A stretch of DNA of 64,000 nt from an uncultured Candidatus Saccharibacteria bacterium (GTDB lineage Bacteria; Patescibacteriota; Minisyncoccia; Phycocordibacterales; UBA918). Shown here piece after piece: positions 32,815 through 54,979 of this stretch. The position numbers and the translations under genes are program-made. Location: the NCBI GenBank assembly GCA_964399295.1, contig CAYNQD010000001.1:399672-463671 (forward strand), given 5' to 3'. Position 1 is the stretch's first letter, and each line of letters begins with the position of its first letter. The notes under the pieces are model-generated. The model saw only the letters and a list, made by a program, of their open reading frames with translations, had not been told where the DNA came from and did not search any database.

Positions 32815-32843
32815 AAAGTAATACTTCTCGTGCTAGCACAACT

Positions 32844-32906
32844 TGGCTGCCGGACAGGGATTCGAACCGTCTCGGTCTAGAACCAAGATATGGCTTAAAA
32901 TATAAA
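32844..32906 (-). repeat. tRNA-3'-end-derived repeat copy A (T-arm-like GGTTCGAATCC + CGGCAGC acceptor-like end)
   Basis: Minus-strand reads ...TTTAAGCCATATCTTGGTTCTAGACCGAGACGGTTCGAATCCCTGTCCGGCAGCCA; abuts stop codon of 32915..35653 gene; homologous to copies at 48567, 53941, 54881. Confidence 0.7.
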
Positions 32907-32914
32907 CTTTTCTT

Positions 32915-35653
32915 TTACCACCACAATCCAGACAGTCCTGCAGCTTTCATTTGTGCGCGAGTGATAGGTCCGAAGTATCCGACAGCTGGCGAGATACCGT
33001 TTGCAGCTTGATATGCTGCGAGAGCTGATCGTGTTTGGTTAAGGAACAGGCCGGTTGCTCCAGCTGGAATTGAGTGTCCCTGTCCAATGAGAAGAGTCTG
33101 GAGAGCTACAACATCAGCACCTTCCATTCCATATTTAAGGTCTCGGACAAAAAATGCTGGTGCGGTAATTCCGAGCAGGTCTAGAATATTCTGTGGAAGA
33201 GATATACCCATACTGTGTGCTCGAAGAAGCATGTCACGATGTTGATTAACAAGGTTTTCTACTGTTTGAGTTGGTCGTTGACCTACAATGTGAGAGCTCG
33301 ATCGTCGTGTTCGTTGTGAAGGAGACACGATTTCTTCTTCAGTCGGCAAAGTGGGTTCTACTTGCGTAATGACAAAAAGCTCAGAGAAGACGACGAGCCC
33401 CAAACGAGATAGATTGTATGAACCAGAAATTCCTCCTACCAACTGGCCAAACATAGACTCCATACCTTCATCAAAATACTCATCTTCACTTTCTGACTGC
33501 CTAGTCCACGAGGTACCATTATCGAGCGAAGAATACACCACTATCCGATACCAGAGTAATTCATCGTCATATGCATCCATGCGGTTTTCTACCACAGCCG
33601 CGACTACCCCCTCACCTGTCGCTGAAGGAGCGACATATATCCACGAGTGATCTCCTGGGGCAGTACTCGTGGCCCACGATAATCCCTTATCGCTGGATAT
33701 GTACATGTTTCTGGCGAAGGCATCGATGACAAAAAATCTCTCCGCGTCTTTCGAGACCATCACTGAGAAAGGAATAACTTCTTGGTCAAGATATGAAAGT
33801 ATCGGCTCCCACGTTTCTCCATAATCATGAGAAACAATCACTACTGCCATTTCAGGATCTCCCATCATGAGCATAGGGCTCATTGCAAGCATAATTGTTG
33901 AACCATTTGCTGAGGCAGAAATTGAAGAAGGAAAAACGAACGATTCATTGGAAAGGCTGAGAGGGAGCATGTCTTCCCAATCCTCTCCTCCATTGTTCGA
34001 ATATATCACTTTGTTAAATAATGCAACATATATATGTGACAAATCACTTGATGCGGTGATACGTGAAAGATACAATGCCATAAAAGTAAGGTAGTCATCG
34101 CCAAACTCTTCCATATCATCCATTGCAATAGTTGATATTACTTGGATGTCCCAACTCTCTCCGCCGTCTACAGAACTGACAGCAATAAAATTAACTTCAT
34201 CGCCTATAAGGCTAGTGACGCCTACTGCCATTATCTTCATCCCATCTGCAGAAGACGTGACAGATGTAAGGAGTATGTCTGGAGAAGAGGTGCTGAGTTC
34301 CCAGCTCTCTCCGCCGTTGGCTGACACATATATGACAGTAGAAGGATACTCTTCCTCGCCAAGTAGTCCATGTCCTGTTGCTACTAGTCGGCTCCCGTCT
34401 GAAGATACCGAGATTGATGTCCATATATGATTTTCAAAACCTTCTAAGTGTTGCTCGAGCATTTCATATATAGAACCTTCTGGAATATCATTGTCGTCTC
34501 CAAAATCCTCTTCTATCGGCTCCTCAATGGTGGTGAAGCTCCATGAAGAACCGCTAATACCTGGGTAAGTATTGTCATCAGCATCAACAAACGCCGTATC
34601 AGGGATAACCACTAGATACTCAGTTCCATATTCAAATTCAGATATCGGACTGATTGTCACCTCATTACCGTCAATCGTAATACGATCGCTATCTATATCG
34701 AAGGACTCGAAAAGTGAATCATCTTCTGCTCGATAAATACTAATTTGTCCTGTCGATGTCGCAACGGTTGAGGTACTGAAGCTAAGAACGAGGTTGGTTG
34801 AAATAGCCACATCTTCTGCATTATCAACCGGAGAAAGTGTCGCTGAGATTGTTCCTAGTGATGCATTTGAATTTTCTGCCGCCTCCTCCTCGGTAATTGC
34901 CCGACTGTAGATCCGCACATCCTTCACATCACCCTTAAACCATCCCTGATTGTTGCTGCAGCTTGGGGCATCTATACCAGCAAATACATATACAGGATCA
35001 TCAGCTGCAGCATAGGCAGTCATCGCACTAGAAGCAACTTGCACACCATTCACATACAAGTCTAGTGTTTCTGTTTCGGGAGACCAAGTGTTGGCAATGC
35101 TATACCACTCTCCGAGCACCGCTGGCACAGAATTGACGGCTGTGACAGGAGTACCGTCCCATCCTATAGCGCGAAAATGTCCGTTCTGGATATGGAGCAT
35201 AGAAATACACCAACCCTGTCCATTTCCACCATTTGGACTGTTTGATATATGAATAATGTTCCCACTTTCACTTTCATCATTTACACGAACGGAAGCGGAT
35301 AGAGTATAGGCCTGATTGGACACGCCCATAGATTCCGTGAGAGGAGAATCGGTTCGGATGTAATCATCAACCCCATCAAAGGAAAGGCCTCCGTTTAAAA
35401 TCCAAGTTGGACCGCCATAGAGTGTACCCGGGTATCCGGTCAACGCTCCGGTTGTCCCCCCTTCTCCTTCATCAAGTGGCCAATAGAATTTCAAATCATC
35501 ACCAGCATGTGCACCAGAGACTGCGATAAAGAAAATTACCGCGAGACAAAAAGTTGTAGTAATAAAATATTTCCAGTTTTTCATTATGATTATTATTGTA
35601 TCATGACTAAATAAAATATGAACGTCATGTCCAAGTGCAAGAAATAATTGCAA
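32915..35653 (-). CDS. Large secreted surface protein: LamG/ConA-like lectin domain + BNR/Asp-box beta-propeller repeats + C-terminal peptidoglycan-binding domain
   Basis: 912 aa; N-terminal TM/signal; LamG-like YWPLDEG...FDGVDDY; six SxDxGxTW Asp-box repeats (SANGGESW, SVDGGESW, SNNGGEDW, SHDYGETW, SSDKGLSW, SLDNGTSW); C-terminal LKYGMEGADVVALQTLL...GYFGPITRAQM PG_binding_1. Confidence 0.75.
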   Translation of the reverse strand: MQLFLALGHDVHILFSHDTIIIIMKNWKYFITTTFCLAVIFFIAVSGAHAGDDLKFYWPLDEGEGGTTGALTGYPGTLYGGPTWILNGGLSFDGVDDYIRTDSPLTESMGVSNQAYTLSASVRVNDESESGNIIHISNSPNGGNGQGWCISMLHIQNGHFRAIGWDGTPVTAVNSVPAVLGEWYSIANTWSPETETLDLYVNGVQVASSAMTAYAAADDPVYVFAGIDAPSCSNNQGWFKGDVKDVRIYSRAITEEEAAENSNASLGTISATLSPVDNAEDVAISTNLVLSFSTSTVATSTGQISIYRAEDDSLFESFDIDSDRITIDGNEVTISPISEFEYGTEYLVVIPDTAFVDADDNTYPGISGSSWSFTTIEEPIEEDFGDDNDIPEGSIYEMLEQHLEGFENHIWTSISVSSDGSRLVATGHGLLGEEEYPSTVIYVSANGGESWELSTSSPDILLTSVTSSADGMKIMAVGVTSLIGDEVNFIAVSSVDGGESWDIQVISTIAMDDMEEFGDDYLTFMALYLSRITASSDLSHIYVALFNKVIYSNNGGEDWEDMLPLSLSNESFVFPSSISASANGSTIMLAMSPMLMMGDPEMAVVIVSHDYGETWEPILSYLDQEVIPFSVMVSKDAERFFVIDAFARNMYISSDKGLSWATSTAPGDHSWIYVAPSATGEGVVAAVVENRMDAYDDELLWYRIVVYSSLDNGTSWTRQSESEDEYFDEGMESMFGQLVGGISGSYNLSRLGLVVFSELFVITQVEPTLPTEEEIVSPSQRTRRSSSHIVGQRPTQTVENLVNQHRDMLLRAHSMGISLPQNILDLLGITAPAFFVRDLKYGMEGADVVALQTLLIGQGHSIPAGATGLFLNQTRSALAAYQAANGISPAVGYFGPITRAQMKAAGLSGLWW

Positions 35654-36934: not shown

Positions 36935-37116
36935 AAGTATAACTAATCAGCATGAATACGTGAACAAGTTGTCATTAGGTACCGAAAGGTGAATTGCCAC
37001 AAGAACTTTTTGATGTCGCACTGATGCATTTGGCACTTTTCCACAAGCCAAACGAGGTGGTGTATGTATAATGCAATTAACGGCATACAAGCCCACATAG
37101 GTGACTCCTTAAATGA

Positions 37117-37163
37117 AGGCCTACGCATTTCCCATACAACGGGACTCGTAGGCCTTTTGTGTT
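37117..37163 (+). terminator. Strong stem-loop (9-bp perfect stem AGGCCTACG/CGTAGGCCT) followed by T-run; terminator-like or element boundary structure
   Basis: Inverted repeat with nested TCCC/GGGA pairing and TTTTGTGTT tail; sits at left edge of the integrative-element-like block. Confidence 0.45.
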
Positions 37164-37217
37164 AGTCACGATTTTAACGAAAACGAAAACGCATTATGAC
37201 TAACTCCATTCATTATT

Positions 37218-38495
37218 ATGAATACACAACCACTCACATGGCGAACGGAACAGCGAAAGGTCAGCGACCTCGTACCGAACGCCAAGAACCCTCGCTCACT
37301 CTCTGCACAACAAAAAGCAGACCTTGAAGCGAGCATTACTAAGTTCAACATTGCCGAGATCATGGCTTTGAACACCGACAACACGGTGCTGGCGGGTCAC
37401 GCCAGACTTGTTGTGCTGAAGGCGCTCGGACGCTCTGATGAAATGATCGATGTTCGCATTCCTTCTCGGACATTAACAAAGGAAGAGTGCGAGGAGTACA
37501 TGCTCCGCTCGAACCGCAACACTGGCTCGTGGAATCATGAACTGCTTCGTGCTTTTGATACGTCTTTCCTTCTCTCGATCGGATTTGACGATGTCGACTT
37601 GTCGGACATCTGGGAGGACGTACTTGAAATTGAAGATGATGATTTCAAGGAAGAGGATGCGGTTGAAGAAGCCAAGGACACCGACATCAAGAACGGTGAT
37701 CGGTTTCAACTTGGAGATCACCTGCTTGCGTGTGGCGACAGCACGGACCAGACAGTCGTGAAGAATCTTGTTGGCGACAAGAAAATCGATATGGTCTATG
37801 TTGACATTCCATACAATATAAATTTGAGCTACAACAAGGGATTAGGTGGAAAATCCCACTATGGCGGTGATGTCGACGACAAGAAATCCGATACTGAATA
37901 TCGTGCATTTGTGAAGAAACTCATGGAGAACGCTCTCGCGGTCTCCGCAAAGGATTCGCACCATATCTGGTATTGCGATTCAAGCTATGTGGGCATGATG
38001 CAATCACTCTTTGCAGAAGTTGGCATCGCATACAAGCGCACCGCATTGTGGATCAAAAACGGCATCAACTGCACTCCGAAGATAGCATTTTCGAAGATGT
38101 ATGAGCCGGCCTTGTACGGAGTAACCGGACGACCATACCTTTCACCAAAGCACACGAAATTCGGCGAGGTGCTTAACAAGGAGGTTGGTATCGGTAACGC
38201 AACGATTGATGACATCACAGACATGATTGATATCTGGCTCGCAAAGCGTGATGCGGGTCAGGATTATAAACATCCAACGCAGAAGCCACTCTCGCTTCAC
38301 GAGCGACCGCTCAATCGTTGTACCAAAATCGGAGATGCGGTCTTGGATCTTTGTGGTGGTAGCGGATCTACACTCCTAGCCTGCGAACAAATGAAGCGCA
38401 AAGCGTTTTTGGTCGAACGCAGTCCAGTATTTTGTCAGGTAATCATCAACCGCTATGAAGACTCCAGTGGAAACAAAGCAGTCAAGCTCAATTAA
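37218..38495 (+). CDS. ParB-like nuclease domain fused to beta-class N6-adenine/N4-cytosine DNA methyltransferase
   Basis: 425 aa; N-terminal ParBc-like (VSDLVPNAKNPR...), then LGDHLLACGDSTD, DIPY (motif IV), HPTQKP, DLCGGSGST (motif I) in beta-class order. Confidence 0.85.
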   Translation: MNTQPLTWRTEQRKVSDLVPNAKNPRSLSAQQKADLEASITKFNIAEIMALNTDNTVLAGHARLVVLKALGRSDEMIDVRIPSRTLTKEECEEYMLRSNRNTGSWNHELLRAFDTSFLLSIGFDDVDLSDIWEDVLEIEDDDFKEEDAVEEAKDTDIKNGDRFQLGDHLLACGDSTDQTVVKNLVGDKKIDMVYVDIPYNINLSYNKGLGGKSHYGGDVDDKKSDTEYRAFVKKLMENALAVSAKDSHHIWYCDSSYVGMMQSLFAEVGIAYKRTALWIKNGINCTPKIAFSKMYEPALYGVTGRPYLSPKHTKFGEVLNKEVGIGNATIDDITDMIDIWLAKRDAGQDYKHPTQKPLSLHERPLNRCTKIGDAVLDLCGGSGSTLLACEQMKRKAFLVERSPVFCQVIINRYEDSSGNKAVKLN

Positions 38496-39252
38496 GCACG
38501 GAGATGTGGTTCGGCTTGGCGACCACATTCTCTATTGTGGCAACGCTCAGGATGTTGACCTTGCAACGCTCCTTGAGGGCAGAACTATTTCCTGTCTTGC
38601 GTGTGACCCTCCGTATTCAGTAGATTATGCGGCCAGCAAGCGTAGTATCGGCAAGATTGCAAAAGATAAAGATATCGCAAATGACGGATTCATGACAGCT
38701 GAGGAGTATGTATCGTTCACGAAGTCGTGGATCTCGCCCGCATTGCCACATCTCTCAAAGAAGAACAGCATCTACGTCTTCAACTCGGACAAGATGATCT
38801 TCGCACTTCGACAGGCATTTGTGGAATTGGATCTGAAGGTCGCTCAGCTCATTATCTGGGTGAAGTCTCAGCCAATTCTCGGACGGCTCGACTATCTCCC
38901 ACAACACGAGTTGATCCTCTACGGCTGGAAAGGTACCCACGAGTGGCGACGTGGGAAGGATAAGTCAGTGATGTTTGCGCCGAAGCCATCGCGAAGTGCA
39001 CTCCATCCAACAATGAAGCCTGTCTCGCTCATGCGTCGAATTATCCTTAACGCCACTCGAGTTGGAAGTGTTGTCTATGACCCCTTTGGTGGGAGCGGTA
39101 CCACGCTAATTGCCTGCGAACACACCAAGCGTCGATGCATCATGGTCGAGATGGATCTAGAACACTGCGAGACAATCGTAAAGCGGTGGGAAAAACTAAC
39201 TGGTCATGGCACGGAAATCATCAGATCCGAAGGAGCGGAGCAAGCGGTTTAA
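38455..39252 (+). CDS. Beta-class N6-adenine/N4-cytosine DNA methyltransferase
   Basis: 265 aa; LGDHILYCGN, DPPY, HPTMKP, DPFGGSGTT; overlaps upstream gene by 41 nt. Confidence 0.85.
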   Translation: MKTPVETKQSSSIKHGDVVRLGDHILYCGNAQDVDLATLLEGRTISCLACDPPYSVDYAASKRSIGKIAKDKDIANDGFMTAEEYVSFTKSWISPALPHLSKKNSIYVFNSDKMIFALRQAFVELDLKVAQLIIWVKSQPILGRLDYLPQHELILYGWKGTHEWRRGKDKSVMFAPKPSRSALHPTMKPVSLMRRIILNATRVGSVVYDPFGGSGTTLIACEHTKRRCIMVEMDLEHCETIVKRWEKLTGHGTEIIRSEGAEQAV

Positions 39253-39634
39253 AACAAAACTGCTTGAACACCTCAAGGACTCCGGCAACGTCAGCTACGC
39301 CTGCAAGCGAGCAGGTATTTCTCGCGAAACCTACTACAAGTGGCGCAGGAGCAAAGTATTCGCTGAGGAAGCTGATGTGGCAATCGACCTTGGTAAAGAG
39401 TTTGTGAATGACTTGGCGCACACGCAACTCATTCAAAACATTCAGCAGGGACACATGGGTGCGGTGAAGTTTCAGCTGGCTAGCTGTCACATAGACTACC
39501 AAGCGAGAAAACCATGGCCTCGTGAACTACCAACTGCTCCGCCTCCAGTAACCGAGATTCATATCCATCCAGCCGAACCGATGGAAGTGCGAGAACAACA
39601 AGCGAAGAAGCGAGCGGAGGCTAAAGATCACTAG
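39206..39634 (+). CDS. HTH DNA-binding protein, phage terminase small-subunit-like
   Basis: 142 aa; SYACKRAGISRETYYKWRR helix-turn-helix typical of terminase small subunit/transposase-like HTH. Confidence 0.45.
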   Translation: MARKSSDPKERSKRFKTKLLEHLKDSGNVSYACKRAGISRETYYKWRRSKVFAEEADVAIDLGKEFVNDLAHTQLIQNIQQGHMGAVKFQLASCHIDYQARKPWPRELPTAPPPVTEIHIHPAEPMEVREQQAKKRAEAKDH

Positions 39635-40364
39635 CCAACACTTCAACAATATTCTTCCAGTCTGAGGTAGACATTCCAAAAGAAGTCGCGTGAGGGACCA
39701 CGGCATACAATGTGCCGTGGTTCTTTGCTATGTGGAGTTTCTTCGGAATGATTTCTTCAAACGGTATGCTTGCGATTTGTTGCCAATCTGAAAGATAAGT
39801 ACGTGAGTAGAAGAGGACGAGTTTTGGTTTATGCCTGTGTATCAATGCTTGGAGTTGGTGTGCTCGTCTTGGTTTGTATGTTTTTAGATACTCCTTGCGA
39901 GAAGCTAATCCCTCAATATTAAAATCACCATACAGCCAGTCTGCTTCTTTGATTGATTTAGACGGCAACGGCATGAGTTCCAAGACCGTGTGGTCGGATT
40001 TCTTTCTTCCGAATGAACCAATCTGAAACTGGCGAATTTCTTCGAGTGTTGGTTCTTTGCCTGTTGTTAGATATAGGTGAATGTATATGAGTGGTCGGTA
40101 TGTTTTCTGTGTCGGTGCATTGTCTGCAAACCAGCGTAAATGATCGGGGCTGGTCTGCATGTCTTCCACGATGTCGCAGACTATTTTGTCGCTGGTAGTT
40201 TTGAATCGCTCATAGAGTAGATTCATTGAACCATCAAAACCCTCTTCCATACCGACAAACCAAATATCACTTTCTAGATTGCCATAGCCAAAAAAGTTCT
40301 TGATTCGTTTTTGGATTAATATTTCAAAATCGTCTCCGTGAGGAGACTGGGTGTTGTCATTCAT
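39621..40364 (-). CDS. Hypothetical protein (possible paralog of 40675..41256; weak UDG-superfamily-like pattern)
   Basis: 247 aa; IWFVGMEEGFDG and C-terminal VVPHATSFG loosely resemble UDG motif A/B positions; low confidence. Confidence 0.4.
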   Translation of the reverse strand: MNDNTQSPHGDDFEILIQKRIKNFFGYGNLESDIWFVGMEEGFDGSMNLLYERFKTTSDKIVCDIVEDMQTSPDHLRWFADNAPTQKTYRPLIYIHLYLTTGKEPTLEEIRQFQIGSFGRKKSDHTVLELMPLPSKSIKEADWLYGDFNIEGLASRKEYLKTYKPRRAHQLQALIHRHKPKLVLFYSRTYLSDWQQIASIPFEEIIPKKLHIAKNHGTLYAVVPHATSFGMSTSDWKNIVEVLASDL

Positions 40365-40674
40365 TTTTCCCTACTAGGATTTAGTTGTGCGGAACCTTCA
40401 GGTAATCAAAAGGCTCCCAGCCATCGCGATCCAACCTTTCGGCCAGACCCATACCTGTTTCCAGATATGACCTAGTAGAGTGACTCTGACTGGGAGTCCT
40501 TTGATCTCTACTAGGTTTTTGCGCCATACCTTAGGAAACCCTAAGGGTTAGGCGACTATATTCAATTGTCGTACGAGTACATAATACCAAAATCGGTATC
40601 ATTTGGCACTTTAGCTTACATTCGGAGCTTTGCGAAGTAGCTGTTACCAACACATTCACGTATACTCTATAACC

Positions 40675-41256
40675 ATGTATTCCCGAGAAAAGTATGAGAA
40701 TTTGAAGGCAAAATATGGGGAATACGCCAGTTGGGCTATTTGGAATGAAAAAGACGAGCGTGATACTTCTGTTATAGATGCATCTTTTGAACAGCTATCT
40801 CCACATTATGTATTCATTGGTCTGAACATATCAGCTCCACTACGAGACTCTTCTTGGGCGAATTTTCGTGGTGGCAGACATGATCGAAAACTTAAGTACG
40901 CTTGCAACAATACTGCATTGCGTGGCTCATACCTTACTGATCTCTTTAAAGGAATACCTGAAGCAAAGTCATTCAAGGTAAAGGGGATGCTTACCAATGA
41001 CATCATTCAGGAAAATGTATCCTTCTTTCAAAACGAAATGGATGATATCGGATTGGACAAGGAATCTGTTCTTATCCTTCTCGGCGATTTAGCAACGCGA
41101 TATTTTGATGAACATTTTCGAAAACTCTTTACTAATTCGACCATAAGTTACCGCCACTACTCATCGTATGGAACCGATCGTGATTGGGTTGAGGGTTTAT
41201 GGAATCAACTTGATGTTGATGGCGATTTTGATTCTATCAAACTGAAAAGTAGTTAG
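40675..41256 (+). CDS. Hypothetical protein (divergent partner/paralog of 39621..40364)
   Basis: ORF track start 40630; Met at 40675 (MYSREKYENLKAK) plausible; YVFIGLNISAP...YLTDLFKG...H.SSYG pattern parallels upstream-divergent gene. Confidence 0.4.
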   Translation: MYSREKYENLKAKYGEYASWAIWNEKDERDTSVIDASFEQLSPHYVFIGLNISAPLRDSSWANFRGGRHDRKLKYACNNTALRGSYLTDLFKGIPEAKSFKVKGMLTNDIIQENVSFFQNEMDDIGLDKESVLILLGDLATRYFDEHFRKLFTNSTISYRHYSSYGTDRDWVEGLWNQLDVDGDFDSIKLKSS

Positions 41257-41275
41257 GCCAAAAATGAAACACTGC

Positions 41276-42685
41276 TCAATCTATCTTGTAGTAGGAATAC
41301 ATGTCTTTTAATTCCAGTCCTAAGCCAACCACATCCAGTCTATCCTTCCTATCATCAAAGAGAGCGTTGATTAAGTGTTTTCTCTCTCGATCAACAGCCA
41401 GATGTATTTGCCGGTGACAACGTGGACAGAGTGTCACATAGTTCGCAAGTACTTCGATAGAGTGAGAGAAATCATTTCTAAATTCACGAGGAATCAAGTG
41501 ATGTAATTCTAGATAATTTTTCCCATTTGCCTTTGCTGTAAAATAAATTGGACTACAATTATTCATGGTTTCCAGAGCACAAGTATATCCACTTTGAATC
41601 CTGGCTTGCCGCTTACGCAGGTTGTAAACAGCTTTAATTTTTTGCTTACCCTCTTCACTAGTTTCGTCAATATAGTCTTCAGCAATATCATGATCCTCAA
41701 CTTCAATCGAGTGATCCTCTACTCCCACCACATCTGAGATTGCCATCTCAATTTCCTCAAGCTCAAGAATTTCGACAAAGATTGGATCAAACACATTCTT
41801 GTTTTCCTGTAGGTAGGTCAAGACTCGATTTCGATCTATAGGAGCAATGGAGGTATTGTAATTGCCAACAAAAACCTCCGGCAGGTTTGCCATGTTTGGG
41901 TCTTTGGACCGGATAAGGAAAAGGGTTAGGAGGAACACTTTTGTCTCATCAAGGAGCATGTTGTGATTGAAGTTGCCACTTGGTTGGTACTTCTTCGATA
42001 TGCAACACGCAAAGGTTTCCGTGCTGATATTACTCTCAATGTATTGAGCTAACTCCTCACGCTCTTCTTCAGTTGATCGCAGGTAACCTATAAGAAAATC
42101 TGAGTCGTCATAAAAAGAATGGATGTAGAAGAATGGACTTCGAAGTGCCGTGCTTAGTGATTCAGATGTAAGCAATTGTTTTGCTGAGTCAGTAAGCAAT
42201 TCTTCGGTCACTCCATCGGTGCTCAGTAAAAATCCAAGCAGATCTTCTTTAACCCGGTAGACAATATAGTTTTTTCGGTTTGTGTAATATCCATTCAACA
42301 AGAACAGGTAGTTGAGTAACCACTTTTCGGCACTCTCAAAATCATTTTCTATAAACTGACCATAGAGTTGCCCTTTTGTGGTCCTGCTATATAAGTCATT
42401 TACATCCTTTCGAAAGAGCTTCGATTGGATCATGTTTATGACGTGATGCTTGTGCTTCTCCTGCCCGTGTCCCTGTCGAGGCCACTGATCTCTTGGCATG
42501 TTTTCTACCTCAAGAAAAGTAGTGAACGCATCAATGAATGCTTTCTGTGTTCTGAAGTTCGTGTTGGTGTATTCAAACATTCTTCCGGCAGCACCCTTAC
42601 CCAAAGAAGCGTGGTTTTTAAACCACTCTTGATTAGCATTTTTCTCTTTGTATATATCTACTAAACTCATGTGTTTGTTTCGCAA
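41276..42685 (-). CDS. HNH endonuclease-domain protein (putative restriction endonuclease)
   Basis: 469 aa; C-terminal LELHHLIPREF...VTLCPRCHRQIH HNH/zinc-finger motif; large N-terminal domain; operonic with two D12 MTases. Confidence 0.7.
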   Translation of the reverse strand: MRNKHMSLVDIYKEKNANQEWFKNHASLGKGAAGRMFEYTNTNFRTQKAFIDAFTTFLEVENMPRDQWPRQGHGQEKHKHHVINMIQSKLFRKDVNDLYSRTTKGQLYGQFIENDFESAEKWLLNYLFLLNGYYTNRKNYIVYRVKEDLLGFLLSTDGVTEELLTDSAKQLLTSESLSTALRSPFFYIHSFYDDSDFLIGYLRSTEEEREELAQYIESNISTETFACCISKKYQPSGNFNHNMLLDETKVFLLTLFLIRSKDPNMANLPEVFVGNYNTSIAPIDRNRVLTYLQENKNVFDPIFVEILELEEIEMAISDVVGVEDHSIEVEDHDIAEDYIDETSEEGKQKIKAVYNLRKRQARIQSGYTCALETMNNCSPIYFTAKANGKNYLELHHLIPREFRNDFSHSIEVLANYVTLCPRCHRQIHLAVDRERKHLINALFDDRKDRLDVVGLGLELKDMYSYYKID

Positions 42686-43677
42686 ATGAACAGAAGTTCT
42701 TTGTGGTCTTTAAAGTCCGTCTTGCCACTGTTGAAGAATTTGTGGGCTACCTCTTTACGCGTGACCTTACCCCTAGAGGAAAGGGTATCTACCAACTGCT
42801 CCTCAGTGATCTTATTGTTTGACGCACTGCTCTTTGCAGAGTAGGTATTATTGTAAGATACAACGATTATTTTTGCCTGCAAGTTATCGATCAGATCTTT
42901 GAACACTTGGGGGGCCTTTGCTCGTGAGTATTCGCTCTTTAGTTCGTCTCTCTTAAATTTCATGGATGTCCCCTCGAATTCTGTTGGTTTATTCCAACGG
43001 ACCAAGTTCTCTAGTACGTGATAGAAGTTTACATACTGACGTGCATTGTACGGCGGATCGATATATGCGATATCACAAGTGATGCTACGTACGAGCTTAT
43101 TAGCATCTATGTTGTGCATCATTGCCGTCCCTGTGAATTCCTCTAATTTTGGGAGGCGTAAATCCACACCTTTTTCTTCTGGAGCTTTTGAGAGAAAGTG
43201 CTCGAAGTGTCCCACTGTATTGGCGATTTTATCTGCGGTATACATGAGTGCAGTAAGTAAAATATACCGCTCTCGCTCGGTAAGTCGGGTATTTGCTATT
43301 CGTTCTCGCAGATATCCGATTTTCTTGGCATCCGGCTGAGAGAAGTACTTACCTCCGTATATTTTTGAGAAGTAATTTGCCTCCAAGTCATTGCCGTCTA
43401 TTGCATTGAATTCTGCAACGATCCTCTTGAGCTTCTCTTTGCTGTATTTTCCAGTACCAAACCACGCCTGGTATGCAATGTAATTCGATCGAAGGGTGTC
43501 GTTTACAATCACATCCATTCCTTTCTCCAGCATATAGTTTGCGACCACACCAGTACCAGCAAACAAGTCAGCGAATACCACCTTTCCGTTGCAGAAAGGT
43601 TCGATGCTGTCGTAAATGTTGTTCAAGAGAGAACTTTTACTTCCAGTATATCGTCTGTTGTTAATTAATAAGCTCAT
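42667..43677 (-). CDS. D12-class (Dam-family) N6-adenine DNA methyltransferase
   Basis: 336 aa; N-terminal RYTGSKSSL, DLFAGTG (motif I), DPPY (motif IV). Confidence 0.85.
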   Translation of the reverse strand: MSLLINNRRYTGSKSSLLNNIYDSIEPFCNGKVVFADLFAGTGVVANYMLEKGMDVIVNDTLRSNYIAYQAWFGTGKYSKEKLKRIVAEFNAIDGNDLEANYFSKIYGGKYFSQPDAKKIGYLRERIANTRLTERERYILLTALMYTADKIANTVGHFEHFLSKAPEEKGVDLRLPKLEEFTGTAMMHNIDANKLVRSITCDIAYIDPPYNARQYVNFYHVLENLVRWNKPTEFEGTSMKFKRDELKSEYSRAKAPQVFKDLIDNLQAKIIVVSYNNTYSAKSSASNNKITEEQLVDTLSSRGKVTRKEVAHKFFNSGKTDFKDHKELLFICETNT

Positions 43678-44602
43678 AATTCGTAATCAAAATTTCGCGC
43701 TCAGCCGCTTGTCGGTTGATCTTATTATAGCTAGCACTGCGGTAGTGGTAATTGATGTCCCAAATCTGCCAGTCATTTCGGTTAAAGGTGCGCACCCATT
43801 CCGATAATGGATTGTTGGTTGCGCCCACTTTAGTGAGTACGTTGGAAAGTGCAAACTTCTTCCCTTTCCTATCAAGAGCTTTTAATAGATCGATCAGTTC
43901 GTGTTCGGTTTCTTCTGTCCAATTTCCTGCCTCGTTGTAGACAGCATCCCCTACCAAGTATGGAGGATCAGCATATATAAAATCTGCCTTAAAGAGAATG
44001 TCTTGAATCTTTTTATCTCGGAAGTCGCCGCATATAAATTTGTAATTGATCTTTTGTACTCGATCTATGTACTGGGTTAGCTTTCGGATGTTGCTGTTAT
44101 TCAGATCGGTTTTCCCGACTGGCAAATTGAAGTCTCCGTCCCGATTAAATCGCATGTCATTGTTAAATGCATACACTACCAGCAAGTAAAGGAGATCGAA
44201 TGCTTTCTTTGAGGATTTATTTTTAAGAGCATTATAATCATCACGTAGTTTGTAGTACCCCTCTGAGTTGTATGCCTTGAGTCCGTTGTTGTCTGCTTTG
44301 GGAATACCTTGGCGGTATGTTTGATATCCGTACTTTGCAGAGTATGACAGTCCGTACTTTTCAACGAGTTTTTCTAGTCTCGGTAAAAGTTTTTCAATGG
44401 TTGAGACCGCTAAGTGTTGAAGCAGACCAATCACATTCTCGTTGTTGTCTATAAAAATAACTTTCTTTGCGTTTACACTTAGTCCTACTGTCGCGCCTCC
44501 GCAAAATAAATCTACAAATGTATCAACCTCTTTAGGAAATCGAGTTGCAAACTGTTCCATTAACCTTGACTTGTTTCCTGTGTAATTGAGTGGTGTTTTC
44601 AT
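43661..44602 (-). CDS. D12-class (Dam-family) N6-adenine DNA methyltransferase (second copy)
   Basis: 313 aa; NYTGNKSRL, DLFCGGA, ADPPY. Confidence 0.85.
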   Translation of the reverse strand: MKTPLNYTGNKSRLMEQFATRFPKEVDTFVDLFCGGATVGLSVNAKKVIFIDNNENVIGLLQHLAVSTIEKLLPRLEKLVEKYGLSYSAKYGYQTYRQGIPKADNNGLKAYNSEGYYKLRDDYNALKNKSSKKAFDLLYLLVVYAFNNDMRFNRDGDFNLPVGKTDLNNSNIRKLTQYIDRVQKINYKFICGDFRDKKIQDILFKADFIYADPPYLVGDAVYNEAGNWTEETEHELIDLLKALDRKGKKFALSNVLTKVGATNNPLSEWVRTFNRNDWQIWDINYHYRSASYNKINRQAAEREILITNYELIN

Positions 44603-44616
44603 AAATAAAATATTTT

Positions 44617-44814
44617 CTACCTCGCCTTTCGTGAGGTGCCATTCTCATATCGTCGAAGGAAACTATCGATATCAGACCGCTTAATTCGCCATTGTCCGAT
44701 TTTGAACGCCCTAAGCCTCTTCGCTTTAATGTAGCGCATAATCGTTCGATCACTTACTCTCAAAGTTCTCGCTGCTTCCTTTACGGTCAGTACTTTTTCA
44801 GCCATCATAGGCAC
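44617..44814 (-). CDS. Excisionase-family helix-turn-helix DNA-binding protein
   Basis: 65 aa; LTVKEAARTLRVSDRTIMRYIKAKRL MerR-like excisionase HTH; divergent from serine recombinase. Confidence 0.65.
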   Translation of the reverse strand: MPMMAEKVLTVKEAARTLRVSDRTIMRYIKAKRLRAFKIGQWRIKRSDIDSFLRRYENGTSRKAR

Positions 44815-44947
44815 TTTATATTATAGCTTACGCTGTCATGTTTTGTCCTATTTATTTGACCTCTGTAGGTGGATAACTTGTCCGACAAACACTTACCAAC
44901 ACTCTCCAAAACGGCACCTAGACTCCTAGGAGCCGTTGCGTCATTAG

Positions 44948-46240
44948 TTGTGTTGTATGGAAAAAACACAACAAACGGAGGTTCTACGGTACTGCCTCTA
45001 TGCACGCAAAAGTACCGAAGCGGAGGATAAGCAGGCTCTATCCATTGAGTCCCAAGTAAAGGAAATGCAGTCCTTAGCGGAGCGAGAGCAACTTAATATC
45101 GTGGAAACCAAGAGAGAGTCCCACTCCTCTAAAGAAGTAGGTCAACGTCCGGTATACAACCAGATGCTCAATGAAATACGCGAAGGTAAGTACAATGCCA
45201 TCCTTACGTGGGCACCAGATAGATTAAGTCGTAATGCGGGAGACTTGGGATCGGTGGTAGACCTCATGGACCAGAAGCTTCTGCATGAGATACGCACCTA
45301 CGGACAGAAGTTCACGAACAACCCAAATGAGAAGTTCCTGCTGATGATCCTCGGGTCACAGGCAAAGTTGGAGAACGACAACAAGGCGGTCAATGTGAAG
45401 CGAGGACTACGAACACGCTGTGAAATGGGATGGAGACCAGGAGTAGCTCCTACCGGATACTTGAATGAGAAGCATGTCGATAAGAAATGTCAGGTTCGGA
45501 TTGATCCGAAACGAGCACCCGTCATAAAGCAGATGTTTGAGAAGGTAGCGTACGAACACTGGAGCGGACGGAAAGTGTACCGATGGCTACGAGAGATTGA
45601 TTTCAAGACCCATCGCGGAAAGCCACTGGTGCTAGCGAACATTTATATAATCCTGAGAAATTCGTACTACCACGGTGACTTCGAATACCCTGTCGGAAGC
45701 GGACAGTGGTATACCGGCAAACACACACCGATTATAGATAAGGATTTATTCGACAAGGTGCAGATGACGCTCAATGAGAACTACATACCCAAGACTGAGA
45801 GCAAGGAGTTCGCCTTTACCAAGCTCATACGATGCGGATATTGCGGCTCAGGGATATCGGCTGATGAAAAATTCAAGAAGCTGAAGAATGGCGGTGTGAA
45901 TCGCCATGTCTACTACTTCTGCTCTAAGTCACGGAATATCGACTGCAAGAATCCTTATATCAACGAACCGAGTCTGATTGAAGAACTAATAGGTCTGATG
46001 GATACGGTAGACCTAGATGAGCTTGGAGTACGTGGCAGGATAGAAGATGAGATCAGACGGTTCAATAAATTCAGGTCGGGAGTACTGGGGCACAAACAAG
46101 ATAAGGTGGAGATAGATGTGGACGTACGAAACTATACAAAGTACCTACTGCGAGAAGGAACGCTACTAGAAAAGCGAGAACTGCTCGGATGCCTACAAAG
46201 CAAACTTTTCCTGAAAGATAAAAAGATTGGAATTGAGTAA
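44948..46240 (+). CDS. Large serine recombinase (resolvase catalytic domain + recombinase domain + zinc ribbon)
   Basis: 430 aa; catalytic YARKST near N-terminus; recombinase-domain and CGYCGS...C..C zinc-ribbon region. Confidence 0.85.
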   Translation: MCCMEKTQQTEVLRYCLYARKSTEAEDKQALSIESQVKEMQSLAEREQLNIVETKRESHSSKEVGQRPVYNQMLNEIREGKYNAILTWAPDRLSRNAGDLGSVVDLMDQKLLHEIRTYGQKFTNNPNEKFLLMILGSQAKLENDNKAVNVKRGLRTRCEMGWRPGVAPTGYLNEKHVDKKCQVRIDPKRAPVIKQMFEKVAYEHWSGRKVYRWLREIDFKTHRGKPLVLANIYIILRNSYYHGDFEYPVGSGQWYTGKHTPIIDKDLFDKVQMTLNENYIPKTESKEFAFTKLIRCGYCGSGISADEKFKKLKNGGVNRHVYYFCSKSRNIDCKNPYINEPSLIEELIGLMDTVDLDELGVRGRIEDEIRRFNKFRSGVLGHKQDKVEIDVDVRNYTKYLLREGTLLEKRELLGCLQSKLFLKDKKIGIE

Positions 46241-46265
46241 AAGAATAATCAAACCGTAGGATTCT

Positions 46266-47330
46266 CTATAACGTCGAAATATTCTTGACGAACTTTCTTT
46301 GTATAAAACCAATGTTCTGCACACACCACGTCACTATATAAATCCCCGCAACAATAAGTGGGTTATTGGATGTGATGAGCTTACGTGCCTGTTCGGTGAT
46401 ACGGATAACTTTGGTGGCCTTAGCTTTTCTTTCCCGTTGATACTCCAATACCGTGTTATATATCAACGCTGTTGCTAATGCCTGACCATCTTCAATACCG
46501 AGATTCATTCCGCGACCACCAACTGGAGAATGGGCATGTGCCGCATCTCCCGCAAGCACCACTCTGCCACGCATATACTCCTGTGCCTGTCGCACTGTTA
46601 TTTTAAACGTACCCGTACGACGCACATTCTTCACATCAAGTTTTATAGGGGATGCTTCCAGACTATTTGGTGTAGAGGAAATGAGACGTACTCGGTTACG
46701 CTCAATAGGTACCATAACCATTCCATCTCTATCTTTATGCTCACCTTCAAGAAGCCATGCGTTTAAGGAGTCATAGTCATGTTCAGCAGTAAGTTCAACG
46801 TCAGCTATTGACCATTCTTCTTCGAGTTCGTATCCATCGTATGGGATATTAAGAGAGCTTCGGACAATTGATCCAACACCATCAGCTCCGACAACCCAGT
46901 CGTAGGTTTTCTTTTCGCCACCATTAAATGTAACTTCCGCAGAAGTATCAGATGTTGTTACCGAATTCACTTTCGTACCAAAGCGTACTGAAACACCCAT
47001 GTGCTCTAATTGCTCGATCATAAGACTCTCCGTTCTGTTCTGCGCAATTCCGATGATAGTCAGCTCGTCACTCGGAAGCATTACGTCTATAAGCCGCTTA
47101 TGTCCTCGGTGTATATGCACCTTCTTCATGCGTATTCCTTCGGCAACAATGCGCTTTCCGACTCCAGTCCTATCAAGAATCTCAATACTTCGAGGAAGGA
47201 CAATAACCGCACGTGATTTCCACGACGGTTCGTCTTTTGCGTCCACAATTTCTGGCACAATGCCTTGCCGTGCCAATTCGAGTGCTACGGTGAGTCCGGT
47301 TGGACCTGCTCCTACGATTAGTACTTTCAT
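46266..47330 (-). CDS. FAD-dependent monooxygenase (UbiH/salicylate hydroxylase-like)
   Basis: 354 aa; N-terminal MKVLIVGAGPTGLTVALELARQG Rossmann/FAD motif; GDAAHAHSPVGGRGMNLGIEDG second FAD motif. Confidence 0.85.
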   Translation of the reverse strand: MKVLIVGAGPTGLTVALELARQGIVPEIVDAKDEPSWKSRAVIVLPRSIEILDRTGVGKRIVAEGIRMKKVHIHRGHKRLIDVMLPSDELTIIGIAQNRTESLMIEQLEHMGVSVRFGTKVNSVTTSDTSAEVTFNGGEKKTYDWVVGADGVGSIVRSSLNIPYDGYELEEEWSIADVELTAEHDYDSLNAWLLEGEHKDRDGMVMVPIERNRVRLISSTPNSLEASPIKLDVKNVRRTGTFKITVRQAQEYMRGRVVLAGDAAHAHSPVGGRGMNLGIEDGQALATALIYNTVLEYQRERKAKATKVIRITEQARKLITSNNPLIVAGIYIVTWCVQNIGFIQRKFVKNISTL

Positions 47331-47380
47331 TATGGTGTTATTTTAACACCTAGAGATTTTTTGGGGAGTTAATCTCACAA

Positions 47381-47956
47381 CTAGGACTTGTTCTTCAAGC
47401 GCAACTTTTGTTTAGCTAATTCTTCCTTAATTATTCGTACCGCCTTGGGGCCAACACCGTGAATAGCTAGTAGTTCTTTCTCGGTATATTTTGATGCTTG
47501 TTTGAGCGTATTGATTCCATTTACAGCTAATTCACGTGGTGCAACTTTACCCATAGTCTTTGGAAACTCACTTGTTTGCGACTCTTCACGTAAAACCTTC
47601 TCCATTGCCTTACCTTTTGCTAGTTCGTCAATAAGTTTGTCGAGATAGCGGACCTCCCGCATAAAAGAATCCTTTATTTCCTCGACACGCACGCCGCAAA
47701 CTACGCCTGTTATCTTTTTTCTTCGGGCGTTCATTTTTGGAGCATTTTTAAAGAACTCTCCAAAATTAGTCTCTTTCTTGAGTTGGGACTCAAGCCCTTT
47801 TGCAGTGTAGCCTGTCAGCCAATGAATAATCTGATCAACTTCTGCTTTCGTTCGCCCTTTTTTCTCTGCCTTCGCGATATAGAAAGGATAGACTTTTGCA
47901 AAAATCATCTTTCTCACCCGTTCGATGGTTTTTTTATCGTCTGCCTTCATAATCAC
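47381..47956 (-). CDS. DUF2200-like protein with C-terminal helix-hairpin-helix
   Basis: 191 aa; [29 protein letters not shown] resembles DUF2200; C-terminal [15 protein letters not shown] HhH. Confidence 0.4.
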
Positions 47957-48417
47957 TACTCATAATCAGCAATTACAATCTTCTTCTGACCCATCATAAT
48001 CTTGAAAGCATCGGGCTTCTTCATAAGCTCCTCTATATTCTCTGGCACCACCTGCCAACTCAAGCCAAATTTGTCCTTGCACCAACCACACTGTTCGTTC
48101 TCTGGATTAGCAGAAAGCTTCTCCCAATAGTAGTCGATCTCTTCTTGATCTTTGCAGTAAATAGCAAAAGATACTGCTTCGGTGAATTGAAACTCCGGAC
48201 CAGCGTTGATGGCTGTGAAGTGCTGACCATCAAGCTCAAACTCTACCGTGAGTGGTTTGCCCGCCATATCGAGCTGAAAATCAGCTAGACCTTCTTCAGC
48301 ACTGTTGGGGTAGTGGACGGTAGTAATAATTTTGCTGTTTGGGAACACAGACGTGTAGTATTCTGCAGCTTCTACAGCATTTCCGTTGAACCATAAGTTT
48401 GCGACGATTTTTTGCAT
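47956..48417 (-). CDS. VOC/glyoxalase-superfamily protein, PhnB-like
   Basis: 153 aa; [14 protein letters not shown]...FGLSWQVV pattern of PhnB/3-demethylubiquinone-MTase-like domain. Confidence 0.7.
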
Positions 48418-48459
48418 AGTATAAAAATGATTGGCTGATAATATATTTAGTTTAACAGA

Positions 48460-48490
48460 AAAGACCGCTCTTTTGGAGCGGTCTTTTCTG
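48460..48490 (-). terminator. Rho-independent terminator (bidirectional-capable) for the 1256-aa surface protein transcript
   Basis: AAAGACCGCTC-ttttg-GAGCGGTCTTT hairpin with flanking T runs on both strands. Confidence 0.7.
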
Positions 48491-48566
48491 TCTGGTTACC
48501 GGACTCACCGGGTATGCAATGTGCGGAATAGTACCTATGCGTCTCAGTCACTTGACTTAGCATATG

Positions 48567-48632
48567 GCTGCTGCCGCAGAAGGACTCGAACCGTCTCGGT
48601 CTAGAACCAAAATATAGCTTAAAATATAGACT
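48567..48632 (-). repeat. tRNA-3'-end-derived repeat copy B
   Basis: Minus strand ...GGTTCTAGACCGAGACGGTTCGAGTCCTTCTGCGGCAGCAGC; abuts stop of 48636..52406 gene, same position as copy A relative to its paralog. Confidence 0.7.
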
Positions 48633-51600: not shown

Positions 51601-52406
51601 CCAAGAATCCATTTAACTGGTTTAGCTTCATCAAAATTTTCAGAAATAGGAAACACTCCAGAAAGCTCAGAAATTTCACCTGGAGTTAGGGCCCGTGAAT
51701 ATACTCGTACATCATCAATTTTGCCTTGGAAATACCGCTGCAAACTATTTTCATAGTTTGAGGCTCCGATAGGAAGAGATACATCGCCTAGATTAATATC
51801 CATATCGAGACCAGTGATAGTGTCTCGTGCAACTCCATCATAGTAGAGCGTGCCGTTACCCTGATCTATTACTATAGAAATGTTATGCCATTCGCTATCT
51901 GCATAACTCACTGTGTAATTTAGGTCTTTACGAGCACCATCAGCTCCACGAAATAAACCTTGAATTTCGCCTGAAACAAGATATATTTCGGCCAGAGGAG
52001 TACCCGGTTTACTGCTATCACGAGCTGAAAATATTCCTTTACCTGACTGATTTGTACCAGTCTTAAACCATAGCGACCACGTAAAAGAATCCCCGTCTGA
52101 ATACACAGGGCTGTACGTAGTTGCAACAACGTCGTCTGTACCATCAAAATCTAAACTGCGTGGATTAGTAAAACTTACATCAGGAACATCACTCGAAGGC
52201 TGTGGTTTGTCGTTTGCACCCGTAGCTCCACTTGGTGTTCCGTGACGATCACCTCCTGATGAATCAATAACCGAACTTACTCCATCACTCATGGTCTCAT
52301 CCAATTTCCAATATCCGACTAAATCATCCGACGCAGAGATTGTTGGAACTATATAAAATAATCCTACTGCCAGTACTGTTGATGTAATAAAAAAATATCG
52401 CTTCAT
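48636..52406 (-). CDS. Giant secreted surface protein: two LamG/ConA-like lectin domains, FN3/Ig-like modules, C-terminal peptidoglycan-binding domain
   Basis: 1256 aa; signal peptide; YWKLDETMSDG...FDGTDDV and YWRFDEGSGSTALDS...FDGVNDG LamG-like modules; C-terminal LEYGMDGEDVRRLQTLL...GYFGPITRAQMKEAGLSGLWW nearly identical to C-terminus of the 912-aa paralog. Confidence 0.75.
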   Translation of the reverse strand: MKRYFFITSTVLAVGLFYIVPTISASDDLVGYWKLDETMSDGVSSVIDSSGGDRHGTPSGATGANDKPQPSSDVPDVSFTNPRSLDFDGTDDVVATTYSPVYSDGDSFTWSLWFKTGTNQSGKGIFSARDSSKPGTPLAEIYLVSGEIQGLFRGADGARKDLNYTVSYADSEWHNISIVIDQGNGTLYYDGVARDTITGLDMDINLGDVSLPIGASNYENSLQRYFQGKIDDVRVYSRALTPGEISELSGVFPISENFDEAKPVKWILGSSASWGAVVDSEETLRLTTAATSQAGLGYYDTAFSSDNGIVVEFDYYSGGGTGADGLAFFLVDGDLVNVGNIAAGAFGSSLGYALSGSTPGVPHAYLGVGFDEYGGFPVAGGGKTGIGSSAPDNVTLRGSGNGTSGYNYLTHTRVSDSPISQTIDGGWRRARISISPNDSGAVIRVEMSWDDGATWHTVIDDYAYDDVPPDFFKLGFTAGTGGSTNIHAIDNLQVSLPTDIAVSVTDAPDGTYRYGDTLEYTYTVTNNGPNDAGEVTVTNDMVIGHTGFTDVIWSYTSTGADSGSGDESDIDSFVVSLDDGEVATVTVEATVGSAVNASTTLSHSINAVPADGYIDPSPSSAEATVAVTTGQTWDDSLVAYWRFDEGSGSTALDSTVNRKNGTISGASYSTTTPPDVEFTDSHSLNFDGVNDGITTSLSLNNYPEFTLAGWAYPRSAADNEGWFGANNVFEFFFTTDNQLRCWTPHGEVNWTYDPETFFNVWHHITCLGDGENVILYVDGDQVGISSDSPTDNYGTGDNFSIGIGVQDGGSSGPFDGYIDDVRVYNRALTPGEMFSLGTGSEEPEEDADDPIVSEVVASSISDSGATISWTTDENASSKVSYGLTNLYGTTTAEINTSPRVTEHVVNLSGLLSCTMYHYAVVSTDGASNTATSTDSTFTTTGCTGNATPTTATSTTIYAGNTGTTNVTENAKTFSVTADAPVDSTIVIQVKAVPNTAVLTALGRPSSAPNEIGATVFDVKAIVNGDTIFDSFDTEVTIDYEYTEDEVSGIDESTLWLYHYTGGQWIALNDCVLDTDANSISCTTPSFSIFGLFGTSPETEEPTGSRTTGGTHFGCKDTNASNYEYFSAHKQELCKYDSPEQALQKIVDQHRDLLIRAHEAGIVLPQNILIMLGVENGSLSVRDLEYGMDGEDVRRLQTLLIGQGYSIPAGATGYFGTQTQYALDAYQVANGIAPRGGYFGPITRAQMKEAGLSGLWW

Positions 52407-54940: not shown

Positions 54941-54979
54941 TATATTTTTATCTTCAAACCAGTTCGAGTCTCTGACAGG

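Follow-up and report, generated by a model that had tools for sequence, protein, structure and literature searches.

The stretch of DNA analysed here, which we call the window, comprises 64,000 nucleotides of contig CAYNQD010000001.1 from an uncultured Candidatus Saccharibacteria bacterium (assembly GCA_964399295.1). Our subject is a block of about 9 kb within it (37218-46240) that ends in a gene for a large serine recombinase (LSR). Gene calls were made from an open reading frame (ORF) map and four profile libraries, and they agree with the ten genes that an earlier note had placed in the block, both in position and in domains: a ParB-methyltransferase fusion, a second methyltransferase of the same class, a small helix-turn-helix (HTH) protein, two divergent genes without family match, an HNH endonuclease, two D12 methyltransferases, an HTH_17 protein and the LSR (Table 1). 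Domain and PHROG scans of the block returned no capsid, portal, tail or lysis gene, and this sets the block apart from a prophage; the note had likewise seen no structural phage genes. The domains, gene orders, conservation, repeats and RNA match observed at this locus and its relatives lead us to read the block as the central core of a larger, phage-derived integrative LSR element lying beside tRNA-Gln and belonging to a large family in Patescibacteria, a reading to which we give a probability of roughly 70%.

The recombinase has the three domains of its class, with matches to the catalytic domain (PF00239, E 3e-20), the Recombinase domain (PF07508, E 1e-13) and the zinc ribbon (PF13408, E 7e-9). 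The motifs YARKS19T, holding the serine nucleophile, and DRLSR can be read in the protein, and the best solved relative, SprA of SPbeta, aligns with it over the full length (E 3e-14), bearing out the YARKST catalytic serine and C-terminal zinc ribbon noticed before. At least 8,000 proteins are homologous to it; identity is 78-90% among the best 120, which are spread over several Patescibacteria lineages, those named among the top matches being Nomurabacteria, Parcubacteria, Paceibacterota, Minisyncoccales and Staskawiczbacteria. For comparison we used three looked-up loci and 87 further LSR loci (L-numbers denote related loci or contigs). One 25.5-kb IMG/VR contig, present as L100 and L105, carries two LSRs of the family (64% and 57% identical to that of the window), each placed after a ParB-methyltransferase, an HTH gene and a terminase large subunit. 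A decayed remnant of a related LSR, its C-terminal ~35 aa (KNYAKYLLGEGTIVEKRELLENL), is encoded on the minus strand of a UBA2163 genome (CP174359.1; L012, ~7620-7740), 2.3 kb from a homologue of the FAD (flavin adenine dinucleotide)-dependent monooxygenase that follows the LSR in the window, in a different gene arrangement.

The LSR-proximal end of the element lies beyond the block. Window positions 48453-48592 match the sequence that comes immediately behind the LSR stop in L013, L021 and L099 (75-81% identity over the conserved end), and the interval from 46225 to 48453 corresponds to L013 11272 to 11285, that is, to a 2.2-kb insertion in the window. Because the post-LSR sequence of the relatives is found this far to the right, we read the three genes at 46266-48417 as an insertion between the LSR and its own terminator. 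The stop codons of the LSR and of the intact FAD-monooxygenase gene are only 25 bp apart, and the latter gene is full length when compared with an 86% identical homologue. The conserved end carries a motif of ~30 nt, CATATGCTAAGTCA(A/G)GTGAC(T/C)GAGACGC (also given as ATGCTAAGTCA), present downstream of the LSR in 51 of the 78 loci whose sequence reaches far enough. Thirty of these 51 loci have the motif directly against the 3' end of an oppositely oriented tRNA: tRNA-Gln in 22, tRNA-Asn and tRNA-Lys in two each, and tRNA-Glu, -Arg, -Leu and -Met in one each; the other tRNAs of the same loci are without it. Just beyond tRNA-Gln lies dnaX, in 11 other distinct loci as well as in the window. Since the tRNA identity varies with a constant motif, and since dnaX is found beyond tRNA-Gln in those 11 loci, we take the tRNA to be host sequence and the motif to be the element end, and we rejected the converse possibility that the tRNA is cargo of the element rather than its target.

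We also considered a structured trailer RNA after the LSR. Rfam gave only sub-threshold, terminator-like matches on the conserved 120-nt stretch following the tRNA fragment, and the idea was dropped because an alignment of 33 copies conserves only the first ~30 nt. Two loci have a layout of their own: the dnaX-side tRNA-Gln (L030 4997-5068, L031 6350-6421) lies on the LSR strand, inverted with respect to all other loci, and the end motif stands 585 nt after the LSR with no tRNA adjoining.

In the window itself the end motif is preceded only by a 3' fragment of tRNA-Gln (48568-48603), and neither ARAGORN nor Rfam called a tRNA in this region, which we term junction J3. Fragments of this kind recur. 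A T-loop 11-mer has nine matches in the window, eight of them on the tRNA-Gln strand, against 0.63 expected, and an arm of ~45 nt is joined to a tRNA-like T-loop and acceptor end at four sites (~32.86, 48.58, 53.96 and 54.90 kb; junctions J4, J3, J2 and J1). What follows the arm differs: the LSR-type motif at J3, unique sequence at J4, and at J1 and J2, as after the true tRNA at 56.25 kb, a type-B arm (CATGTGAGACAGACCGTG) that is likewise found behind the more distant LSRs of L092 and L101. The arms of J3 and J4 are identical over 21 nt. A distal degenerate tRNA end with the motif, a few kb upstream of the LSR, is found in five further loci (L051, L071, L074, L081 and L096). As a family-wide site, the arm TTCTAGACCGAGAC was tried and rejected: a 21-nt probe containing it matched only the window and L051, with a related stretch in L081.

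The simplest reading of these repeats is an LSR unit that would extend from ~32.86 to 48.6 kb (~15.7 kb). It lies farthest from tRNA-Gln, and we therefore read it as probably the oldest in a tandem array that grew up at that tRNA. In the order of events that we infer, the LSR would join a putative element site, made of a pseudo-tRNA arm and a motif arm, to the host tRNA 3' end; repeated integrations would push older elements away from the tRNA, and their stacking would give the tandem array at 32.86-56.31 kb. The base composition is mosaic, in step with the insertions. The view of the block as an integrative defence island survives in part: it does belong to an LSR-bearing, phage-related element with defence and anti-restriction genes, but it is not the whole unit. 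The edges once assigned at 37.1 and 46.25 kb had to be given up, given that a search of 35.5-48.7 kb for flanking repeats returned only short matches at chance level, that the LSR end lies 2.2 kb further to the right and that the matching arm is at ~32.86 kb. The hairpin that had been taken to mark the left edge is real and stable, with an 11-bp outer stem and a T-run, but it is not an edge of the element, and no counterpart was found in related loci.

Two further features of the array can be recorded here. A second, isolated T-arm-like hairpin (TTTAAGCC...GGTTCGAGTCC) stands 60-150 nt downstream of tRNA-Gln and of each pseudo-tRNA junction, before the first gene of the next unit (window 56101-56111, 53811-53821 and ~54754-54764; L015 12786-12796, L033 12976-12986, L025 ~6600), and may act as another recombination site or as a signal for RNA processing. 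Two giant LamG/PG_binding surface proteins, encoded at 32915-35653 and 48636-52406, are ~70% identical over their C-terminal ~110 aa; both abut the conserved arm at the distal end of a unit and look like recurrent cargo.

Upstream of the LSR, which stands at one end of the element and is transcribed outward, we observed a recurrent backbone, shared by roughly half of those loci where a check was possible. Among the 48 loci with at least 5 kb upstream of the LSR, a homologue of the ParB-methyltransferase is found in 24, the HTH gene in 27 and the LOOT RNA (see below) in 21. The recurring order on one strand is ParB-methyltransferase, HTH protein (~220 aa elsewhere) and LSR, with LOOT on the opposite strand, and in the minimal form of the element these three genes are contiguous within ~3.4 kb. 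Residues 9-158 of the 425-aa methyltransferase match ParB-like PHROGs (E 8e-17); Pfam ParB_N did not match the window's protein and did match its homologues. The second beta-class methyltransferase also occurs in L100, L073 and L025 (44-55% identity). The modules are mosaic: for example, the LSR of L013 is 90% identical to that of the window and its methyltransferase 28%, and the corresponding values for L100 are 64% and 51%. Most likely the two backbone methyltransferases protect the DNA of the element on entry.

The terminase-small-like HTH protein proposed in the earlier note has gained in strength, because a terminase large subunit directly follows its homologue in four more distant relatives. 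This subunit was recognised through phrog_38 in L100, L105 and L102 (E 1e-75 to 1e-83) and through 35% identity to that of the phage-like contig L007 in L029. A terminase-like gene would hint at transfer in phage particles. When the proteins of L007 were compared with all LSR loci no structural gene was matched, and neither capsid nor portal genes were found in any of these loci. The relatives, too, carry defence-like cargo: genes resembling a Type I restriction-modification system that separate the terminase large subunit from the LSR (L102 3046-9857), a Schlafen/AlbA_2 protein (L015 8139-9887), and DUF4145 and Hypoth_Ymh genes between the LSR and tRNA-Gln (L015 11330-12740).

Between the two genes formerly listed as unknown, 63 nt upstream of the first of them and on the strand opposite to the LSR, lies an RNA of the LOOT family. 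The match is full length (model positions 1-121 of 121, E 7e-16) and far above the Rfam gathering score, which makes it a member of RF03000. LOOT was present in all 11 related loci scanned with Rfam, again opposite to the LSR, and a custom model built from related copies found it in 25 LSR loci and the window and in none of four control loci. LOOT heads a slot for one variable gene, often a nuclease: in 15 of 20 loci it ends 52-77 nt before an ORF on its own strand, and this ORF varies by locus, encoding an HNH protein, a staphylococcal-type nuclease (SNase), a weak VRR-NUC match, an OB-fold protein, a protein resembling uracil-DNA glycosylase (UDG) or proteins of unknown kind. The accessible literature treats LOOT as a metagenome-derived RNA with no stated function, and we found no prior description of its link to LSR elements or to a variable downstream gene, both of which are seen here. 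Two copies within one element were seen twice (L013 4168-4308 and 7432-7559; L089 6337-6465 and 6594-6718), and the pair in L013 brackets a 3.1-kb insertion that includes bAvd, the gene for an accessory protein of diversity-generating retroelements.

In the window the gene headed by LOOT encodes a 247-aa protein for which fold evidence strongly supports the alpha/beta fold of the UDG superfamily, at 8-18% sequence identity to the solved members. The 193-aa protein on the other side of LOOT has a sizeable family, with 590 cluster representatives; of 48 members, three gave weak matches to Pfam UDG. Its profile gave no significant match to the UDG-like family or to solved structures, and a single-sequence structure prediction was unusable (predicted local distance difference test score, pLDDT, 35). 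Both genes that flank LOOT divergently may be of the UDG superfamily, with strong fold evidence for the one and weak Pfam matches for the other.

The four methyltransferases and the HNH endonuclease had earlier been treated as one loose set. Two of the methyltransferases belong to the phage-type backbone just described, and the HTH_17 gene, the D12 pair and the HNH gene form what is predicted to be one portable Type II restriction-modification cassette. Full-length homologues of the HNH protein are found at 33-91% identity, the few named ones including Patescibacteria, Bacteroidales and a Malacoplasma, and for three of them we examined the surroundings on their own contigs. L007 has HTH_17, methyltransferase, methyltransferase and HNH in this order, at 70, 84, 81 and 74% identity to the window, in the company of a GpA-type terminase ATPase, an SU10-type capsid protein and an SU10 adaptor. 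In L008, from Nomurabacteria, the two methyltransferases and HNH lie between chromosomal genes, with a different small gene upstream and no recombinase nearby, while in L010 their neighbours are a Type III system and an unrelated LSR of 505 aa; in both contigs the three genes come without HTH_17. The methyltransferase-methyltransferase-HNH order is thus kept in three unrelated contexts at 39-84% identity, which is the adjacency of a Type II system. Nucleotide comparison with L092 shows window 40567-44918 as a 4.3-kb insertion comprising the 193-aa gene and the cassette, so that the predicted restriction cassette sits as an insertion between LOOT and the LSR.

The two D12 methyltransferases correspond to the two halves of single fused enzymes in PADLOC. 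The one at 42667-43677 matches the N-terminal half (PDLC03292, 77-407 of 722; PDLC03287, 2-287 of 646) and the one at 43661-44602 the C-terminal half (419-716 and 443-642, respectively). Fused two-domain methyltransferases of the FokI type modify the two strands of an asymmetric site, and by analogy the D12 enzymes probably modify one strand each of such a site. In the HNH protein only the last ~140 aa resemble others, namely McrA-type restriction HNH domains; the N-terminal ~370 aa have no detectable relative outside their own family, and for this reason we read the first 370 aa as a predicted recognition domain. Phage and plasmid records yielded no full-length relative and no annotated enzyme name for this protein. 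The HTH_17 protein, encoded at the head of the operon, is probably the regulator of that restriction operon. It had been described as an excisionase-family HTH, which would make it the excisionase of this LSR; its 70% identical copy occupies the same position in L007, and the gene was not detected in the other LSR loci examined, arguing against co-inheritance with the LSR. As the gene accompanies the cassette and is missing from those loci, the excisionase label is unsupported. The cassette would defend the host and confer addiction, thereby stabilising the element.

Table 1. Features of the LSR unit and of the tandem array in the window (coordinates are window positions).
Feature	Position	Strand	Remarks
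Junction J4	32843-32908	-	~45-nt arm TATATTTTAAGCCATATCTTGGTTCTAGACCGAGAC joined to tRNA-Gln-like T-loop and acceptor 3' end with CCA, then unique sequence; candidate distal end of the LSR unit
LamG/BNR/PG_binding surface-type protein, 889-912 aa	32915-35653	-	Cargo by the distal arm; Pfam labels from an identical contig
META-domain protein, 309 aa	36005-36934	-	Cargo
Hairpin with T-run, terminator-like	37115-37152	+	Divergent intergenic region; folding free energy -24.6 kcal/mol, z -4.6
ParB-like N-terminal domain with beta-class N6/N4 methyltransferase, 425 aa	37218-38495	+	N6_N4_Mtase E 6e-24; backbone
Second beta-class N6/N4 methyltransferase, 265 aa	38455-39252	+	N6_N4_Mtase E 1e-33; optional backbone gene
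HTH protein in terminase-small position, 142 aa	39206-39634	+	HTH_Tnp_1_2 E 1e-6, weak terminase-small PHROGs; backbone
UDG-like protein, 247 aa	39621-40364	-	No family match; variable gene headed by LOOT
LOOT RNA (Rfam RF03000)	40428-40554	-	87.4 bits against a gathering score of 46.4
193-aa protein	40675-41256	+	No family match; cargo
Predicted restriction endonuclease, 464 aa	41276-42670	-	HNH at residues 388-428, McrA-type
D12 adenine methyltransferase	42667-43677	-	MethyltransfD12 E 2e-28
D12 (Dam-family) adenine methyltransferase	43661-44602	-	MethyltransfD12 E 5e-33; TIGR00571 above cutoff
HTH_17 small DNA-binding protein	44617-44814	-	HTH_17 E 3e-17; TIGR01764 'excise' above cutoff
Large serine recombinase	44957-46240	+	Resolvase, Recombinase and Zn_ribbon_recom domains
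FAD-dependent monooxygenase, DUF2200 and PhnB/3-dmu-9_3-mt-like genes	46266-48417	-	Cargo between the LSR stop and the usual terminator/end motif of the LSR; Pfam labels
Conserved LSR-proximal element end	48453-48567	-	Motif CATATGCTAAGTCAAGTGACTGAGACGC, hairpin, bidirectional terminator 48455-48491
Junction J3	48568-48632	-	Pseudo-tRNA-Gln 3' half and conserved arm, directly before the end motif
Junction J2	53930-54012	-	Same arm and tRNA-like 3' end, joined to type-B right arm CATGTGAGACAGACCGTG
Junction J1	54863-54945	-	Architecture as J2
Intact tRNA-Gln(CTG)	56241-56312	-	Array anchor; type-B right arm follows
dnaX	57712-58755		Beyond tRNA-Gln

Several observations weigh against an integrative LSR element with the history outlined above. 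Neither an empty site nor a circular junction was found: every contig of the source strain has the same arrangement, and exact-protein look-ups with both flanking genes returned only the source strain, arranged identically. The comparison with an uninterrupted locus that the earlier note had called for was no more fruitful, for the sole related genome found (Patescibacteria UBA2163, CP174359.1) keeps the FAD gene (86% identity) and none of its neighbours, and with these absent no empty site can be read there. No replication or transfer gene was identified in the element, and domain scans of the unit gave no match to primase, helicase or replication-initiator domains. About half of the LSR loci are without a ParB-methyltransferase at the sensitivity used. 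The right arm at the true tRNA, J1 and J2 (J0-J2) differs and is tied to an LSR subfamily that is more distant and has no member in the window. The displaced tRNA fragments have T-stem and acceptor sequences that mismatch the 5' half of the present tRNA, so that a simple history of serial integration needs extra assumptions, and the crossover might fall either at the 3' terminus of the tRNA or within its T-arm. Finally, the copy in the window may no longer be excisable and may be fixed in place, because 2.2 kb of cargo split the LSR from its end motif and the adjoining tRNA is only a fragment.

Taken further, such losses would describe an inert remnant of a temperate Patescibacteria phage, in which packaging-side methyltransferases, a terminase small subunit and an integrase were left behind, insertions followed and nothing is mobile. 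We hold this to be unlikely. A remnant would account for the lack of structural, replication and lysis genes, for the terminase large subunit of the relatives being missing from the window copy, for an LSR 2.2 kb away from its end motif and next to a fragmentary tRNA, and for the decayed LSR C-terminus in the related UBA2163 genome. It sits poorly with an LSR that is full length, whose catalytic motifs are intact and whose counterparts in other genomes are 90% identical to it, and with J3 and J4 arms that are still identical over 21 nt. Nor would independent decay be expected to leave the same three-gene backbone together with LOOT in many genomes.

A recombinase resident at tRNA-Gln could also act as a capture system in the manner of an integron or of staphylococcal cassette chromosome (SCC) elements, installing recombinase-less cassettes with a pseudo-tRNA arm while the methyltransferase and terminase-like genes make up its platform; we regard this as a more doubtful proposal still. 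Three recombinase-less units do share the ~45-nt arm (one with a serine hydrolase and NUDIX, one with an HXXEE protein, and one running from DUF1398 through the LamG protein), but the right arm of the recombinase-less units is of type B and points to another LSR subfamily. The unusual conservation of the LSR across lineages and the conserved dnaX/tRNA-Gln location would suit a fixed platform; LSR elements are found at other kinds of tRNA too, however, which is a better fit to a mobile element, and the LSR unit adjoins the tRNA in relatives and is the farthest from it in the window. CcrB is the best NCBIfam match of the LSR, though far below the cutoff. Very improbable, and already contradicted by the evidence, is a self-contained defence or anti-restriction island of ~9 kb with attachment sites at ~37.1 kb (the hairpin) and 46.25 kb and HTH_17 as its excisionase: the block does form a compact set between genes of a different kind, and HTH_17 passes the 'excise' cutoff and is divergent from the LSR, but no direct or inverted repeat links the edges, the stop of an intact, full-length FAD gene lies 25 bp from that of the LSR, the conserved LSR-proximal end is at 48.45-48.57 kb, and HTH_17 accompanies the restriction cassette, whereas minimal LSR elements do not have it.

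The integrative LSR element thus remains our preferred reading, and its practical consequence for the window is an island of ~15.7 kb rather than 9 kb, with two gene labels in need of change. Beyond the window, we propose tentatively, and with slightly less than even confidence in the whole taken jointly, that these loci represent an undescribed family of serine-recombinase elements across Patescibacteria. Its members would target tRNA 3' ends, mostly tRNA-Gln by dnaX; they would carry a packaging-type phage backbone (ParB-methyltransferase, terminase small subunit and sometimes large subunit), and hence might spread as phage satellites; LOOT would be the conserved leader of a hypervariable nuclease/defence slot; and the elements would form integron-like cassette arrays. 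We found no description of such a family in the literature on LOOT and on serine-recombinase elements of Patescibacteria. These bacteria have tiny genomes and few recognised mobile elements. If the proposal is true, a single recombinase family, with thousands of near-identical copies at one tRNA locus and with restriction systems and nucleases on board, would be a main route of gene flow and phage defence in the phylum. LOOT would receive its first biological context, and its position ~60 nt before an exchangeable gene would make its role directly testable. A compact serine recombinase whose conserved site is short and adjoins a tRNA would also be a candidate for genome engineering.

Among known systems, prophages and islands with an LSR (SPbeta with SprA, and the phiC31/Bxb1 type) share with the element the three-domain recombinase, the catalytic serine motif and a recombinase gene placed at the end of the element by the attachment site. 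They differ in that here the apparent target is a tRNA 3' end, there are no phage structural genes and no recombination directionality factor was identified. The 3' ends of tRNAs are the usual target of tyrosine integrases. SCC elements resemble it in their serine recombinase, in the use of one conserved chromosomal site, in repeat-delimited tandem or composite arrays that include recombinase-less units, and in restriction-modification and other cargo. The SCC target is rlmH, whereas here it is a tRNA, and here the backbone is phage-type and includes an RNA; moreover, the LSR falls outside the Ccr family, scoring 135 bits with CcrB against a cutoff of 900 and 63 with CcrA against 700. The predicted restriction cassette has its own parallel in Type IIS systems with two methyltransferase activities, such as those with FokI-type fused methyltransferases or with HNH enzymes such as MnlI or Eco31I: the D12 pair matches the halves of fused enzymes, and beside it lies an HNH nuclease whose N-terminal domain is large and separate. 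It differs in that the N-terminal 370 aa of this nuclease are without detectable relatives outside their own family.

Phage-inducible chromosomal islands (PICIs) and other phage satellites are likewise small integrated elements with an integrase and a terminase-small-like gene, without capsid genes and often with defence cargo. Here, in contrast, we found neither a repressor or primase gene nor a replication origin or any gene for capsid remodelling, and no replication module of the PICI kind was recognised; no helper phage is known, and some relatives of the window element carry a terminase large subunit of their own. The terminase-small assignment in this comparison draws on weak profile matches and on synteny in relatives. 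Tycheposons of Prochlorococcus integrate next to tRNAs, leave partial-tRNA repeats and push older elements deeper into the island; they occur in cargo-carrying and in satellite-like forms with a terminase small subunit, many have replication genes, and of the 937 elements with an integrase, 910 rely on a tyrosine recombinase (Hackl et al., bioRxiv 10.1101/2020.12.28.424599). The element has in common with them a streamlined host genome, integration on the side of a tRNA, partial-tRNA repeats and tandem accretion, and it is set apart by its serine recombinase, the lack of any replication gene that we could see, another host phylum and other hallmark genes. It therefore resembles LSR prophages and islands, SCC arrays, tycheposons and satellites, each in a different respect, yet by its recombinase and gene content it is not an SCC element, a tycheposon or a prophage.

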